Assembly (NCBI RefSeq): GCF_050920415.1
Contig: NZ_CP169309.1
Strand: one strand, 5' to 3'
From: Escherichia coli
GTDB lineage: Bacteria; Pseudomonadota; Gammaproteobacteria; Enterobacterales; Enterobacteriaceae
DNA: 64,000 nt
The notes under the pieces were generated by a model that was not told where the DNA came from, searched no databases, and saw only the letters and a program-made list of their open reading frames with translations. Each line of letters begins with the position of its first letter. The first letter of the stretch is position 1. Positions 32,313 through 37,112 of this stretch are shown here, piece by piece. Position numbers and translations under genes: made by a program.

Positions 32313-32390
32313 TTATAACCAAAGATAACTCAAGTTATAAAAAATAGCAATAACCTTTGTTATTTTACTTTGGATAACCGTAGTTATAGA
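32313..32390. promoter_or_regulatory. OR operator cluster with pR/pRM: three 14-bp palindromes ATAAC-N4-GTTAT
   Basis: ataactcaagttat (32325-32338), ataacctttgttat (32350-32363), ataaccgtagttat (32374-32387); putative pR -35 TTGCTA / -10 TATCTT on minus strand. Confidence 0.65.
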
Positions 32391-32399
32391 TTTGTGGGT

Positions 32400-33107
32400 A
32401 TGAAAACATTCGCAGAAAGACTAAATGCAGCCATGAGCTTAGCTGGGGTATCACAATCACAGCTTGCAGACATGGTTGGAATATCTCAGCCAGCCATACA
32501 GAAGATGTCGTCCGGTAAAACAAACGGATCTCGCAAGATGGTTGAATTAGCCAATGCTTTAAAAGTGCGCCCTGAATGGCTTAGTTCTGGTATTGGTGAA
32601 ATGAGGGATGGTGCACATGAAGAACCATCCAATGTCCGTGAGTCATCTTTAAAAGCTGTGGTATGGGAAGACATTAAAAGAAACGATGACGAGTTTGTTG
32701 CGTTGCCTCTTCTTAACGTTTCGCTTTCAGCTGGAAGCGGTAGCTGCGAGCTAGAGGAATCATCGGAGTTCTCTTTGGTTTTCAGAAAGCACTATCTGAA
32801 AAAGATGGGAGTATCTGAAAGATCAGCCAAGCTAGTTAGGGTTGTAGGGCAAAGCATGGAACCTACGCTTCACGATGGCGATGTTGTTGGTGTTAACACG
32901 CAAGATACCACAATCAGAGATGGTAAAACCTACGCTATTTGCCAGTCTGATTTGTTACGAGTAAAAACATTAATCGCCACCCCTACATCGGTGATAATCA
33001 GATCAATAAATCGCGAAGAGTACCCGGATGAAGTAATGGATAGAGATGAATTTCATGAAACCGTAAGGATTATTGGCAGAGTATTCTGGTCGTCTCATAG
33101 TTGGTAA
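32400..33107 (+). CDS. CI-type prophage repressor (N-terminal HTH, C-terminal LexA/S24 autocleavage domain)
   Basis: ORF 32370..33107; MKTFAERLNAAMSLAGVSQSQLADMVGISQPAIQKM... and C-terminal GQSMEPTLHDGDVVGV motif. Confidence 0.85.
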   Translation: MKTFAERLNAAMSLAGVSQSQLADMVGISQPAIQKMSSGKTNGSRKMVELANALKVRPEWLSSGIGEMRDGAHEEPSNVRESSLKAVVWEDIKRNDDEFVALPLLNVSLSAGSGSCELEESSEFSLVFRKHYLKKMGVSERSAKLVRVVGQSMEPTLHDGDVVGVNTQDTTIRDGKTYAICQSDLLRVKTLIATPTSVIIRSINREEYPDEVMDRDEFHETVRIIGRVFWSSHSW

Positions 33108-33147
33108 CCGATAATCAGAAGAAGACTTACGGAAGTGCGGAGGGATA

Positions 33148-33444
33148 ATGGAATTTCTGATAGTTTTTGTTGTTGTTTTGGTCATCATTCTTTTTGTTTT
33201 GCTAAGCATTAGCAAAAAGCTATCTCAAATGATTGAACATAGCTCTAATCGCGCAAAAGAAGAAGAGCATCTAATTGATATAAAAGAGATTCTCTCTGAT
33301 ATAAAAATCACATTAGATGAAATAAAATACACAACAGATCTAATTGAACAGTATAAAATACCAACCCCAAACGAGAGAAAATCAATAGATCAATATCGTA
33401 TTGACTTAGAAATCGACGAAATGCTAAGCAACAGAAAGGACTAA
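33148..33444 (+). CDS. 98-aa single-pass membrane protein co-transcribed with repressor (candidate superinfection-exclusion/abortive-infection moron)
   Basis: SD GGAGGG then ATG 33148, 40 nt after cI stop; MEFLIVFVVVLVIILFVLLSISKK... TM helix then charged helical tail; very AT-rich; terminator follows. Confidence 0.6.
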   Translation: MEFLIVFVVVLVIILFVLLSISKKLSQMIEHSSNRAKEEEHLIDIKEILSDIKITLDEIKYTTDLIEQYKIPTPNERKSIDQYRIDLEIDEMLSNRKD

Positions 33445-33447
33445 AAA

Positions 33448-33474
33448 CACCCGGCCTCAGCGCCGGGTTTTTCT
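33448..33474 (+). terminator. rho-independent terminator after the cI-linked moron
   Basis: Stem CCCGGC/GCCGGG with 5-nt loop followed by TTTTTCTTTC. Confidence 0.65.
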
Positions 33475-33597
33475 TTCCCTGCCGTTCACCATCCAATCAA
33501 CCATCCTCATCATAGACAAGCATCAAGCCAAAGGTAACACCTTCACCCAGCACGCAAGCCCTCAAACACCAATCAATCAGCAACATTTACAAAAATA

Positions 33598-33690
33598 AAA
33601 TACCTTTGTTATCCATCACTTATAACTTATTTACCACAAAATATAAATTAGGTTATTGACCACACCTATAACCTAAGTTATCTTTAAGCC
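33598..33690. promoter_or_regulatory. OL operators and pL promoter (-35 TTGACC 33656-33661, -10 TATCTT 33679-33684)
   Basis: Operator palindrome ataacctaagttat (33668-33681) overlapping spacer and -10; second half-matching site atacctttgttat near 33600. Confidence 0.6.
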
Positions 33691-33728
33691 ATCAGCAGGA
33701 AGCTGGTAGCCAAACGGAACAGATTGGC

Positions 33729-33769
33729 AGGCTCTTTAACATTGATGGGATTGTCCCGCCGAAATGCGG
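33729..33769 (+). promoter_or_regulatory. nutL (boxA GCTCTTTAACA + boxB hairpin TCCCGCCGAAATGCGGGA)
   Basis: Between pL and N start; same boxA/boxB as nutR. Confidence 0.7.
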
Positions 33770-33878
33770 GAACCAAAGAGTAGTTGGCTTTGGGGTGACG
33801 TGAAGTGCAGCTGCACGACGGCAACCGGAAGATAAGCACCCGGCGCGTCACCGCCAAAGTCAATCATCGGAGGTCAAC

Positions 33879-34184
33879 ATGGCAGTAGTCATTACATATC
33901 TGGCTGACGATAACGCCAGAAATCGCCGCAGAGCACGCAGGCAGGCTCAACGTGAACAGGCAATGCAAGAACAGCGACTGGCGCGAAAGATTGCGCTAAA
34001 GCTCTCTGGTTGCGTCAGAGCAGATAAAGCAGCATCACTCGGAAGCCTTCGCTGCAAGAAGGTAGAAGAAGTCGAGCGTAAACAGAACCGTATTTACTAC
34101 CGAAAGCCACGGAGTGAAATGGGTGTGACATGCTCAGGCCGCCAGAAGCAACGCGGAAAATCAATTCCAGCTTATTACGATTGA
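33879..34184 (+). CDS. N: antitermination protein N (arginine-rich motif; phage 21 N-like)
   Basis: 101-aa ORF; NARNRRRARRQAQREQ arginine-rich N-terminus; LARKIALKLSGCVRADKAASLGSLRCKK...EVERKQNRIYY resembles phage 21 N as recalled. Confidence 0.7.
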   Translation: MAVVITYLADDNARNRRRARRQAQREQAMQEQRLARKIALKLSGCVRADKAASLGSLRCKKVEEVERKQNRIYYRKPRSEMGVTCSGRQKQRGKSIPAYYD

Positions 34185-34192
34185 GGTGAGAT

Positions 34193-34663
34193 ATGACAAT
34201 ATCATGGAGCGTACCTTTTCCTGAATCAGAAACTGAACATGAGGGAATGCCTGTTTTCTGGAGATTCCAGGCGACAGTTGAAGAAGATGGAATCAAAATA
34301 TTAGCACTTCAATATATAGCTTTTCATCAGACAGAGCATTATGCATGGTTGGTTCCTGCGCATTGGATTGTTAATTTTAAACCAGCACCAAATCAGTGGT
34401 TACAGGAATGGAAACAAAGGAGAAATAGATATGCAATTAAGAAAGTAGCAAAAAATGCAGAAAGATCTTTTGCATTCCCAACGAAGAAACTTGCCATTGA
34501 GAGTTTATTGCGCCGGAAGAAATACCATTTAATGAGAATCAAACAAGATTTGGCTGTTGTATCAACTCTTGTTGATGGGATGAAGAATATTGATACATCA
34601 ACACCAGATATTGAATATAACTTTGGGCACAACCAAGAAACAGAAAATTGGGTATTTTATTAG
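34193..34663 (+). CDS. hypothetical 156-aa protein immediately downstream of N (AT-rich accessory gene)
   Basis: SD GGTGAG then ATG 34193; no recognisable motif. Confidence 0.5.
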   Translation: MTISWSVPFPESETEHEGMPVFWRFQATVEEDGIKILALQYIAFHQTEHYAWLVPAHWIVNFKPAPNQWLQEWKQRRNRYAIKKVAKNAERSFAFPTKKLAIESLLRRKKYHLMRIKQDLAVVSTLVDGMKNIDTSTPDIEYNFGHNQETENWVFY

Positions 34664-34765
34664 TACGAGTAAGCACTGTGTATTCATTCCAACGAGTGAA
34701 TACACGGAGCAATGTCGCTCGTAACTAAACAGGAGCCGACTTGTTCTGATTATTGGAAATCTTCT

Positions 34766-34794
34766 TTGCCCTCCAGTGTGAGGGCAATTTTTTT
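34766..34794 (+). terminator. rho-independent terminator inside pL operon (N-readthrough type)
   Basis: Stem TTGCCCT/AGGGCAA with 7-nt loop followed by T7, 12 nt upstream of next gene start. Confidence 0.6.
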
Positions 34795-34932
34795 GATGGA
34801 GGATATATGAGTGAAGTAACAGATTTAGTTGTTATTGAAAAAGCAAATGCAATGACTGTATTTCAGTCTGCCGACCAGATTGAAGAAATCTGAACCGCCC
34901 CGGGTTTCCTGGAGAGTGTTTTATCTGTGAAC

Positions 34933-35820
34933 TCAGGCTGCCAGATCATTGTTTCCGATGGAAGCATAATAAGCTTTTTCTGCTTCTGCCGGAGGAGTAT
35001 GGCCCAGCCTTCCCAGCAATCGTCGATTGTTATACCAGTCCACCCACGTGAGTGTGGCCAGTTCCACTTCTGCACGGTTTTTCCAGCTCTTACGGTGTAT
35101 TACCTCCGCTTTGTAAAGACCATTGATGCTCTCAGCCATCGCGTTGTCATACGAGTCGCCTGTACTCCCTGTTGATGCCAGCAGTTTTGCTTCTTTTAGT
35201 CGCTCCGTATAGGCCAGTGACACATACTGAGAGCCTTTATCGCTGTGATGGATGGTGCCAGACGGACGACGGGCCCACAACGCCTGCTCCAGCGCATCCA
35301 GCACGAATGTCGTTTCCATAGACGATGAGACCCGCCACCCCACGATGTATCCGGCAAACACATCAATGATGAACGCCACATAGACGAAGCCCTGCCATGT
35401 GCTGACGTAAGTAAAATCAGCCACCCACAGCTGGTCAGGACGTTCTGCCACGAACTGACGGTTTACGCGGTCACCTGTGGCAACGGTTTTCCGGCTGACG
35501 GTAGTGCGGACCTTTTTACCCCGGAGAACACCGGCAAGTCCCATAACCGCCATGAGGCGCGCCACTGTACATCTGGCCACCCTGATTCCTTCCCGTAACA
35601 ACTGACGCCAGACTTTACGCACACCGTACACCTGATGATTTTCATCGTATACGCGCTGTATCTCTCTCTTCAGCCAGTCATCGCGCTGCGCACGGGCACT
35701 GCGTTTATCAGGATGATGCCGCTGCTGCTGACAATGGTAATACGTTGACGGGGCGATATGCAGTTCACTGCATACCGGTCCGACCCCGTACTGCTCACGC
35801 AGCTTATCCAGCAGTGGCAT
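34933..35820 (-). CDS. IS3-family transposase OrfB (DDE integrase domain)
   Basis: 295-aa ORF with DDE-type catalytic region; overlaps orfA end as expected for programmed -1 frameshift fusion. Confidence 0.85.
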   Translation of the reverse strand: MPLLDKLREQYGVGPVCSELHIAPSTYYHCQQQRHHPDKRSARAQRDDWLKREIQRVYDENHQVYGVRKVWRQLLREGIRVARCTVARLMAVMGLAGVLRGKKVRTTVSRKTVATGDRVNRQFVAERPDQLWVADFTYVSTWQGFVYVAFIIDVFAGYIVGWRVSSSMETTFVLDALEQALWARRPSGTIHHSDKGSQYVSLAYTERLKEAKLLASTGSTGDSYDNAMAESINGLYKAEVIHRKSWKNRAEVELATLTWVDWYNNRRLLGRLGHTPPAEAEKAYYASIGNNDLAA

Positions 35821-36146
35821 TATTTTTTCCAGAGGCGGTCGAACTCCGCCTTCGCAAAATAAGCGGAAGCCTGGCGAAGGATATCGTTACTGCGGCGCAG
35901 TTCACGATTTTCACGTTCCAGCTCTTTCAGACGCTGACGTTCAGCGGTGGTGAGCCCACCATCACCGCTCCCGGTATCCCTCTCATGCTGGCGAACCCAG
36001 ACACGCAGAGTCTCTGGCGTACAGCCAATCTTTGGAGCAATGGAACAAATTGCCGCCCATTGTGAGTCATATTCGCCCTGACTTTCCAGAACCATACGAA
36101 CTGCGCGTTGACGGACTTCGGGGGAAAAACGAGTATTTTTAGTCAT
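35820..36146 (-). CDS. IS3-family transposase OrfA (HTH)
   Basis: 108-aa [60 protein letters not shown]... Confidence 0.85.
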
Positions 36147-37112
36147 CCTGTTTACCTCTTTCTCAGGAAGTTTAGTCTCCAGGATTTCCGGGGCGGTTCA
36201 ATCCTTCAAAAGGTTGAACGTGAAGTTATGTCCTTTGTGCCTGATATCACAACGGCAAAGGGCAGAAAGGAGATCGCTTCTCTGGCGTATAAAGTTGCGC
36301 AGACGAAAACATATCTCGATGGTCTTGGCAAAGACCTTGTTGCTGAACTGAAGGAAATTCCAAAGCTAATTGATGCCAACCGCAAGACAGTGCGCGATCG
36401 CCTTGATGAGCTGAAAGCCAAGGCACGCCAGCCTCTTACTGATTATGAGGAAGAACAGGCGCGGATTAAAGCCGAAGAAGAAGCTAAGGCAGCAGCTGAA
36501 GCTCTCGCAAAGCAAATTGAGTCTGACCATGAAATAGCGATTTTGATGGATCGCGAATTTGACCGCCAAAGAGAAGAGGCAAGACTCAAAGCTGAGCAGG
36601 AAAAGCGAGAGCATGAAGAACGCTTAAAAAGAGAAGCTGAAGAGAAAGCAAGAGCAGAAGCCGAAGCAAAGGCAAAAGCCGAAATTGAAGCAGCCGCAAG
36701 GCGAGAAGCAGAAGCTAAGGCCGCAGCGGAACGTGCAGAGCGTGAACGCATTGAGGCCGAGCAACGAGCACAGCGCGAAGCAAAAGAGGCAGCAGAACGA
36801 GCTGAAAGAGAAAAGCAGGCAGCAATTGAAGCAGAACGCAGAAAAGCACAGGAGGAGGCTGAACGAATCCGTCGCGAGGCTGAAGCAAAAGAGCAAGCCA
36901 GAATCGCAGAAGAAAAAAGAATCAAGGACGAAGAAGAGCACAGAGCAAAGGATAAAGCTCACCGGAAAGAAGTAAATAACAAAATACTTGCTGACCTTAT
37001 CAAGGTTGGCGCATCAGAAGATGTTGCTAAAAATATCATAACAGCCATCGTAAAAGGCGAAGTATTCGCAACAAAAATAACCTACTAATAAAACCAACAT
37101 AAGGAACCACCC

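Follow-up and report, generated by a model that had tools for sequence, protein, structure and literature searches.

Sequence comparison of the region following N in an Escherichia coli lambdoid prophage points to an HK97 gp45 family gene and a homologue of the lambda small RNA PreS

Introduction

The region considered here consists of positions 34,193 to 34,794 of a 64,000-nucleotide (nt) stretch of Escherichia coli DNA (NCBI RefSeq assembly GCF_050920415.1, contig NZ_CP169309.1), the whole of which is referred to below as the window, and it contains a gene for a 156-amino-acid (aa) protein followed by a hairpin and a terminator. The closest described system for its 3' part is the spacer between ral and ea10 of phage lambda, which encodes an Hfq-enriched small RNA (sRNA), LPR1, renamed PreS (Silverman et al., bioRxiv 10.1101/2024.10.31.621285). 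According to the same work, lambda PreS gives northern bands of 88 nt and, more strongly, of a processed 68-nt form, its 3' end lies at the terminator tL2a, and it appears within 10 min of induction and is absent in the lysogen, i.e. it belongs to the lytic cycle only. The unpaired seed of PreS pairs with dozens of host RNAs; it activates the translation of dnaN by exposing the ribosome-binding site, for which compensatory mutations and structure probing were presented, and it represses alaS. When the seed or the full PreS was deleted, lambda DNA levels and the yield of spontaneous phage fell 2- to 4-fold, an effect that depended on Hfq, and the plaque yield of seed mutants was also reduced. 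The authors report the sequence in 2,537 genomes and count a copy of lpr1 as conserved if it shows at least 92% identity and no more than 3 gaps (bioRxiv 10.1101/2024.10.31.621285).

For the 5' part of the region, the nearest named genes are gene 45 of phage HK97 and L0079 of phage 933W, which have been annotated in sequence records since 1999-2000, and which every source labels as 'hypothetical' or 'prophage protein'. Three other systems are relevant for comparison. The lambda proteins Ral (66 aa) and SieB are dispensable accessory proteins encoded in the slot following N in the early-left operon, and SieB is a membrane protein with its own promoter that is expressed in the lysogen. Phage 'morons' are cassettes consisting of a promoter, a gene and a terminator, as reportedly described by Juhala et al. 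in 2000. The original mapping of tL2a is said to be that of Luk and Szybalski in 1983. An earlier reading of the region, made from the nucleotide letters (hereafter the sequence-only reading), had described it as an unknown AT-rich gene coupled to N, which is followed by a hairpin and an internal terminator.

Results

Two modules in the region following N

The comparisons described below indicate that the region, part of the early-left (pL) operon of a lambdoid prophage, is a mosaic of two modules that are independent of each other, viz. 34181-34663, which carries a gene of the HK97 gp45 family, and 34673-34806, which corresponds to the lpr1 locus of lambda. Leaving aside any suggestion regarding the function of gp45, we regard these identities and this architecture as highly probable. 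The features concerned are as follows.

34193..34663, plus strand: HK97 gp45 / 933W L0079 family gene encoding 156 aa, ATG start (PHROG 1636, sequence comparison)
34673..34710, plus strand: strong hairpin of the lambda-type module, just 5' of the inferred PreS start (folding; identical to the lambda ral-ea10 spacer)
34707..34794, plus strand: LPR1/PreS homologue of about 88 nt, the processed form of which, about 68 nt, would span about 34727-34794 (sequence identity to lambda; 5' ends inferred from published lengths)
34742..34768, plus strand: seed region, comprising the blocks 34742-34752 and 34757-34768 (complementarity to the E. coli dnaN leader)
34766..34794, plus strand: homologue of the lambda intrinsic terminator tL2a, at which PreS also ends (scan, folding, homology)

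The 3' module is a copy of the lambda lpr1 locus

Over 135 nt the 3' module shows 96.3% identity to the leftward strand of phage lambda (34045-33911) within the ral-ea10 intergenic region, and the segment 34673-34785 of the window is exactly the same as in lambda. The differences are limited to the stem base at 34786 (A/G), with one stem position being A-U in the window and G-U in lambda, the length of the T run (7 in the window, 6 in lambda) and one gap after it. The hairpin, sRNA body and seed are thus identical in the two phages; both also have a GC-rich stem followed by a U run, are encoded on the pL strand of the early-left operon, and show complementarity to the dnaN leader. The window copy lies within the published limits of identity and gaps for a conserved lpr1, and it ends, as does the lambda RNA, in a GC-rich stem-loop followed by U7. 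The span of PreS in the window was obtained by counting back from the T run with the published lengths. The location between ral and ea10 is not shared, as the neighbours in the window are gp45 and a 322-aa gene; however, flanking genes are probably not a defining feature of PreS, since many different genes flank the element elsewhere. On sequence grounds, the 3' module is therefore assigned as a lambda-type lpr1 locus, in which a hairpin is followed by a PreS homologue ending in a homologue of tL2a.

Within the putative seed, 12 nt (34757-34768) are perfectly complementary to positions -47..-36 of dnaN in E. coli MG1655 and another 11 nt (34742-34752) to positions -27..-17. The predicted PreS-dnaN duplex has a free energy (dG) of -32.1 kcal/mol, as against -14.8 +/- 2.7 for shuffled sequences, none of 500 of which reached this value, and the seed region is mostly predicted to be unpaired or weakly paired. 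The hairpin that precedes PreS has a perfect core of 14 bp (34676-34689 / 34694-34707), with outer pairs extending from 34673 to 34710, and its dG is -21.7 kcal/mol (z = -7.1; 0/200 shuffles fold as well). We infer that this hairpin may have a role in processing or stability. The terminator consists of an 8-bp stem (34766-34773 / 34780-34787), 5 pairs of which are G-C, followed by T7 (34788-34794), with dG -13.2 and z = -3.0. The scan for intrinsic terminators was by itself non-significant (10 sites in 5 kb, where 6.2 +/- 2.7 are expected), but a chance origin of the hairpin and terminator is ruled out because the 135-nt element is conserved across genomes and phages. The sequence-only reading had located the hairpin at 34676-34710 and a rho-independent terminator at 34766-34794, 12 nt before the next gene, and these coordinates are accurate; further, its proviso that the hairpin should be stable is borne out by the folding calculation.

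The 135-nt element, at 96-99% identity, is present in 2,236 of the 5,426 complete E. coli genomes (~41%) and in 327 phage records, and a 143-nt query finds 3,197 places in the E. coli genomes, with up to 6 in a single genome. Among the matches listed, nearly all rows have no RefSeq feature under the element. Its distribution is about 4x wider than that of gp45 (2,236 versus 597 E. coli genomes). In the copies of the terminator from ~70 loci the stem is retained and the variation is almost wholly in the loop, while the 60 nt located 5' of the stem are conserved as strictly as the stem. The segment 34672-34890 is found without gp45 in phages HF4s and CUS-3, and it lies two genes downstream of gp45 in Bas106. 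The element comes after ral in phage 21 and after gene 45 in HK97, where the annotations read terminator and 'putative terminator', respectively; in mEpX1 it is likewise marked as a terminator only. It also represents the first strong terminator downstream of pL in both 933W and PA28. Based on these distributions, the hairpin and terminator are interpreted as an independent module rather than the 3' end of the gp45 gene; the known sRNA PreS/LPR1 was overlooked in the sequence-only reading.

A search of Rfam 15 over 33400-35000 (E <= 1) gave no model or match for PreS, with only two chance-level matches elsewhere. The sRNAs of enterohaemorrhagic E. coli (EHEC) prophages, viz. AgvB, AsxR, the EcOnc set and the Pas sRNAs, were also considered as a match for the element and were rejected, as all of them are located in the late region near Q or PR'.

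Some minor observations concern the same segment. A 32-codon open reading frame (ORF; 34712-34810) runs across PreS and the terminator stem and overlaps the ATG of the next gene in an ATGA; the records of Huey, Bas106 and phi367 list it as a 'hypothetical protein', and it is probably an annotation artefact over the sRNA. On the minus strand, a promoter-like match TACACA-17-TAAAAT (9/12; 34682-34654) lies partly in the hairpin arm and is directed antisense into the gp45 gene; its presence in 933W and PA28 reflects the conservation of the element as a whole, and the number of such matches is within chance expectation. In 12 close loci (L019, L022, L024, L031 and others) the stop codon of gp45 is overlapped by a second terminator, also conserved (GGCCGCATAGTCGGCC followed by TTTATTTTT), and the same holds for two diverged gp45 homologues (L010, 4470-4495; L012, 4479-4503). 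This terminator comes after the gene for a membrane protein in HF4s and CUS-3, and lambda has a degenerate copy after ral (34086-34060); there it stands in tandem with, and 5' of, the hairpin-PreS module.

The 5' module carries a gene of the HK97 gp45 family

The 156-aa ORF is assigned by similarity to the HK97 gp45 / 933W L0079 family, PHROG 1636 (unknown function), whose profile it matches along its entire length (E 1.6e-110, residues 1-156 to profile positions 1-156). The tblastn identity is 98.1% to L0079 of 933W and 97.4% to gp45 of HK97, both of which are of equal length to it. Hence, while the sequence-only reading had called this gene unknown, it is already on record under these three names and is a catalogued gene, though uncharacterised in its function. 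The remark in that reading that the protein has no recognised motif agrees with our results: Pfam searches with the protein and 78 family members returned nothing below E 0.001, and NCBIfam, PADLOC and PDB sequence searches, carried out with single-sequence as well as profile queries, gave no hits, so that characterised relatives are absent from all four. A search of the literature on L0079, HK97 gp45 and tL2 found nothing relevant.

The gp45 gene is present in 87 phage records, which include 933W, H-19B (where it carries no annotation), BP-4795, Min27, Stx2-86, PA28 and HK97, and in 597 of the 5,426 complete E. coli genomes. Full-length homologues with 55-97% identity occur across Enterobacterales, with 40 residues invariant, and the 33 cluster representatives are from Escherichia, Pectobacterium, Brenneria, Cronobacter and Rosenbergiella. 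The locus search with the close alignment recovered only near-identical E. coli copies; a profile search extended the wider family, of ~140-aa proteins, to 87 representatives at E <= 1e-3. In pairs of homologues dS was saturated and dN was 0.1-0.36, and dN/dS for the single computable pair was 0.18. These comparisons indicate that gp45 is a real gene under purifying selection. A 140-aa protein that occupies the same slot in CUS-3 was examined as a remote relative and rejected (hhalign probability 0.15%). Among the remote members of the family are two AlphaFold database entries of ~145 aa (A0A1B8SZU4 and A0AB37QL73), including one Pseudomonas coronafaciens protein, that bear the UniProt label 'Transposase', and nothing supporting this label was seen in them.

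With an alignment of 78 sequences, AlphaFold2 gave a confident model of gp45 (pLDDT 95.2, pTM 0.82); this alignment was required, as a run with 21 close homologues was poor (pLDDT 58.8). In the predicted fold, a beta meander of three strands is accompanied by short helices and by a helix of 33 residues (98-130). In a Foldseek search of the model against AFDB50 the only matches were to its own uncharacterised family, including Pseudomonas, Pantoea and marine gammaproteobacterial proteins, and none was to a characterised protein. Structure prediction, which the sequence-only reading had suggested, has thus yielded a confident model but no characterised structural relatives. No transmembrane segment is predicted in gp45 (the highest 19-residue Kyte-Doolittle mean is 0.62), its segment 76-130 has a net charge of +11, and the family has a median pI of 8.9. 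From these properties gp45 is predicted to be a soluble, moderately basic protein.

Genomic setting of gp45 and the boundaries of the modules

The genomic setting of gp45 was compared in 95 loci. On the 5' side, similarity to the window is lost in 47 loci at 34181, immediately ahead of the ribosome-binding site, and on the 3' side in 59 loci at 34791-34810, just past the terminator T run. The commonest upstream neighbour of gp45 is an N gene at a distance of 2-58 nt, and the N genes involved have at least 5 different arginine-rich motifs, viz. lambda-like MDAQTRRRERRAEKQ, P22-like GNAKTRRHERRRK, 933W/HK97-like, window-like and phi21-like. In other loci a homologue of Nun precedes gp45; ral, genes for small membrane proteins and further small ORFs are less frequent on this side. 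The order N-then-gp45 also holds for homologues with 81% and 71% identity (gaps of 7 and 2 nt), in which a different intrinsic terminator is located immediately 3'; across phages, three unrelated sequences serve as intrinsic terminators right after gp45. The more distant members of the family adjoin xis-int or lie elsewhere in early operons. Further, gp45 is lacking in the N-bearing phages lambda, P22, phage 21, CUS-3 and Sakai Sp5, and in Sp5 another gene follows N. Because gp45 is absent from many related phages, it appears to be a dispensable accessory gene of the early-left operons of temperate phages, with a strong but non-obligatory preference for the slot after N.

Some observations were made on individual loci. 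In PA28 (L003, 1736-2381) and mEpX1 (L103, 1-638) an N-like gene and then a Nun-like ORF (HK022 Nun-type, ...HAHQRNPNKKWS) are found upstream of this region, and in PA28 the Nun-like ORF is annotated merely as a 46-aa fragment. In Pectobacterium and Brenneria prophages (L004, 5478-5560; L005, 5478-5560) the gp45 homologue lies just 5' of xis-int, with a terminator-like hairpin on its 5' side and, on its 3' side, another hairpin, which is conserved (GGGCGTGTC.TTG.CATGCCC) and ends in a weak T run. A remote member of the gp45 family in each of two metagenomic prophage contigs (L007, 3872-5001; L008, 3313-4442) has ~1.1 kb without called genes just 5' of it.

Comparison with named systems

The window differs from lambda in what surrounds PreS: in lambda the upstream neighbour is ral, a second terminator ('type B') follows ral, and the downstream gene is ea10, whereas in the window gp45 comes directly after N, the second terminator is absent and the downstream gene is the 322-aa gene. 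In the comparison with the ral region of lambda, which the sequence-only reading had recommended, gp45 is absent from lambda, and the hairpin and terminator are nearly identical to those of the ral-ea10 spacer. In HK97 (gene 45) and 933W (L0079), as in the window, the gp45 gene is located right after N and before the same terminator element. However, the N allele upstream is of a different type (window type with an 8-nt gap, 933W/HK97 type with a 58-nt gap), and the gene downstream of the element is cIII in HK97 and ssb/ea10 in 933W.

With lambda Ral and SieB, gp45 shares the post-N slot and its apparently dispensable accessory status in the early-left operon, but it shows no sequence similarity to either of them. 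The identification of gp45 as Ral was rejected, as there is no Pfam or PHROG match to Ral; in phage phi367 ral and the gp45 homologue are neighbouring but distinct genes. Its identification as a SieB-type exclusion protein was likewise rejected on the basis that no transmembrane helix is predicted, no promoter is detected from pL to the ORF, and PADLOC gives no match. The sequence-only reading had named Ral and SieB as identities that would overturn it, and the ORF is neither. The view put forward there that this location is a hotspot for accessory genes is supported by related phages, which carry Ral, small membrane proteins or further small ORFs at the equivalent position. The AT-rich composition of gp45, its sharp bounds and its exchangeability between genomes resemble those of morons. 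However, gp45 was rejected as a classical moron, as no promoter of its own was detected, and the terminator belongs to a separate module that is also found without gp45.

Position in the early-left operon

The features surrounding the two modules are as follows.

32370-33107, plus strand: cI-like repressor gene (ORF list; a cro-like gene is on the opposite strand)
33656..33684, plus strand: candidate pL-like promoter TTGACC-17-TATCTT (consensus scan, 9/12 matches; consensus match only)
33731..33771, plus strand: nutL, with boxA GCTCTTTAACA at 33731-33741 and a boxB-like hairpin at 33754-33759 / 33766-33771 (sequence reading)
33879..34184, plus strand: N antiterminator gene, 101 aa, with arginine-rich motif NARNRRRARRQAQRE (PHROG 271 'anti-termination protein N-like', E 3.1e-36; ORF list)
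34807..34890, plus strand: 5' part, comprising 28 codons, of the gene that comes next in the early-left operon, the rest of which is at 36204-37088 (ORF list)
34891..36200, minus strand: insertion sequence (IS) of the IS3 family, IS629/IS1203-like, 1310 bp (orfA 35820-36146 and orfB 34933-35820, both on the minus strand)

The pL-like promoter is located between the cI-like gene and nutL. The boxB-like hairpin of nutL has a folding energy of -10.5 kcal/mol, and an identical nutL is found 5' of a related N gene in locus L010. The stop codon of N (TGA, 34182-34184) sits within the GAGGT Shine-Dalgarno sequence (34183-34187) of the 156-aa ORF, whose ATG is 8 nt from the N stop, and the GC content of this ORF is 36.3%, in comparison to 50.7% for N and 49.5% for the whole window; the description of it in the sequence-only reading as an AT-rich gene coupled to N is therefore apt. 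The ATG of the next gene, at 34807, is 12 nt past the terminator T run. By consensus scan, no intrinsic terminator or promoter was detected between pL and 34766. Because the first intrinsic terminator detected after pL follows gp45, read-through into the rest of the early-left operon should need N. The sequence-only reading had likewise proposed that the genes downstream depend on antitermination by N, which is a reasonable suggestion also in view of the annotated terminators in HK97 and phage 21.

Discussion

Proposed working of the region

From the layout described above and the published work on lambda, the following working can be proposed. After induction or infection, transcription from pL would cover nutL, N, gp45 and PreS. 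Without N, it would end at the homologue of tL2a, and the resulting immediate-early RNA would encode N and gp45, bear PreS at its 3' end, and be processed to sRNAs of ~88 nt and ~68 nt. PreS together with Hfq would then pair with the dnaN leader, leading to more synthesis of the beta-clamp, which would aid the replication of phage DNA. Once N has accumulated, the N-modified polymerase would pass the terminator into the remaining early-left genes.

As to what gp45 does, we suggest tentatively, and at rather low odds, that it could be a non-essential, host-directed accessory protein that is made very early and binds nucleic acid or a nucleic-acid-associated host factor, for anti-defence or takeover. 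An extension of the proposed working, which is similarly speculative, is that pL drives, here as well as in the many Stx, HK97-like and P22-like phages that share this layout, a three-part, N-independent immediate-early unit, viz. N, a host-acting gp45 of novel fold, and PreS released from the same mRNA. If this were the case, gp45 would represent a new class of very early phage effector, and the rise in DnaN caused by PreS would precede the action of N and could affect the replication of Stx phages and their toxin output.

Several points weigh against this interpretation. The assignment of PreS rests on its identity with the lambda sequence and on a single preprint, with no model for it in Rfam 15. 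The termination efficiency, PreS processing and Hfq binding proposed for the window copy are all carried over from lambda. The lambda PreS lies after ral, farther from pL than in the window, and because of this the kinetics of PreS in the window layout may differ from those in lambda; further, a terminator, tL1, is presumably located between N and PreS in lambda. Lastly, the promoter and terminator scans identify consensus matches, and Rho-dependent termination inside N-gp45 is possible.

Alternative explanations

It could be argued that the hairpin and terminator are a mere transcription stop and a recombination 'boundary' between modules, with no functional sRNA in this phage. The element does lie exactly at mosaic junctions, with differing genes on either side; HK97, phage 21 and mEpX1 annotate it solely as a terminator; and the annotators of CUS-3 mark 'boundary sequences' in this region. 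However, a bare terminator would not need the 60 nt 5' of its stem to be as conserved as the stem itself, the lambda copy gives an Hfq-bound sRNA with validated targets, and the blocks complementary to dnaN are intact in the window copy, and for these reasons we consider the explanation improbable. An unlikely origin for the gp45 gene, i.e. that the 156-aa ORF is a chance open frame in an AT-rich spacer, to which the lack of a known domain and of annotation in H-19B could be taken to point, is refuted by the conservation pattern and has virtually no probability left: full-length homologues extend to 55% identity with 40 invariant residues, dN is far below dS, the ribosome-binding site is strong and the fold prediction is confident.

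With regard to the function of gp45, a SieB-like role in superinfection exclusion or abortive infection, by which it would guard the lysogen, is suggested by its presence in the post-N slot that other accessory genes use (SieB is there in lambda and P22), by an AT-rich composition such as many acquired genes have, and by its absence from many related phages, which implies dispensability. Such a role is nevertheless unlikely, as in the lysogen gp45 should be repressed by cI, there being no promoter-like site between pL and the gene, and, unlike the membrane proteins encoded in the same slot, it is without a transmembrane segment; it also has no match in PADLOC. A role of gp45 as a transcription or RNA factor acting alongside N or Nun, e.g. 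by modulating termination, Rho or RNA polymerase, would fit with its tight adjacency to N or Nun genes of many specificities, seen even for diverged homologues, and with its basic central segment, which suits nucleic-acid binding. However, N is present and gp45 absent in lambda, P22, phage 21, CUS-3 and Sakai Sp5, other members of the family adjoin xis-int or sit in non-lambdoid contexts, and the searches carried out here revealed no similarity to any known transcription factor; hence this possibility is also decidedly improbable. The interpretation that we prefer is that of a very early, host-directed accessory protein, offered at the tentative level indicated above.

Significance of the assignments

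It should be emphasized that neither component of the region is new, the gene being on record with the annotation of unknown function and the sRNA and terminator having been characterised in lambda, and that the layout is ordinary; our findings do not overturn current understanding. The assignment of the 3' module accounts for an unannotated 135-nt element, present in ~41% of complete E. coli genomes, as a copy of a phage sRNA that targets the replication clamp of the host. In 933W, H-19B and many other Stx-converting phages, as well as in HK97, the PreS sequence is located directly after the uncharacterised gp45, in the stretch before the first detected terminator. The gp45 family, which is conserved, confidently folded and unlike characterised proteins, is a sensible candidate for functional screens.

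Other features of the surrounding DNA

The next early-left gene is intact, with 322 aa, in phages Huey, HF4s and Bas106. The depositors of HF4s label it 'similar to phi80 Agt', a label which we take here as presumptive. In the window this gene is interrupted after codon 28 by the IS629/IS1203-like element, whose termini are 25-nt inverted repeats (34891-34915 and 36176-36200) flanked by a 3-bp target duplication, ATC, at 34888-34890 and 36201-36203; matching copies in RefSeq are annotated as 'IS3-like element IS1203 family transposase'. The exact IS junction was found in 0 complete E. coli genomes of the collection, in which no place covers at least 80% of 33000-36200. Because the IS cuts the next gene after codon 28, the rest of the early-left operon of the window is probably compromised, whereas N, gp45 and PreS are intact. 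Directly 3' of the cI-like gene and on the same strand, an ORF of 98 aa (33148-33468) with an N-terminal hydrophobic segment (MEFLIVFVVVLVIILFVLL...) was also observed, at the end of which lies a two-way terminator-like hairpin (33449-33468), and this ORF could represent an accessory gene that is expressed in the lysogen as part of the immunity operon.

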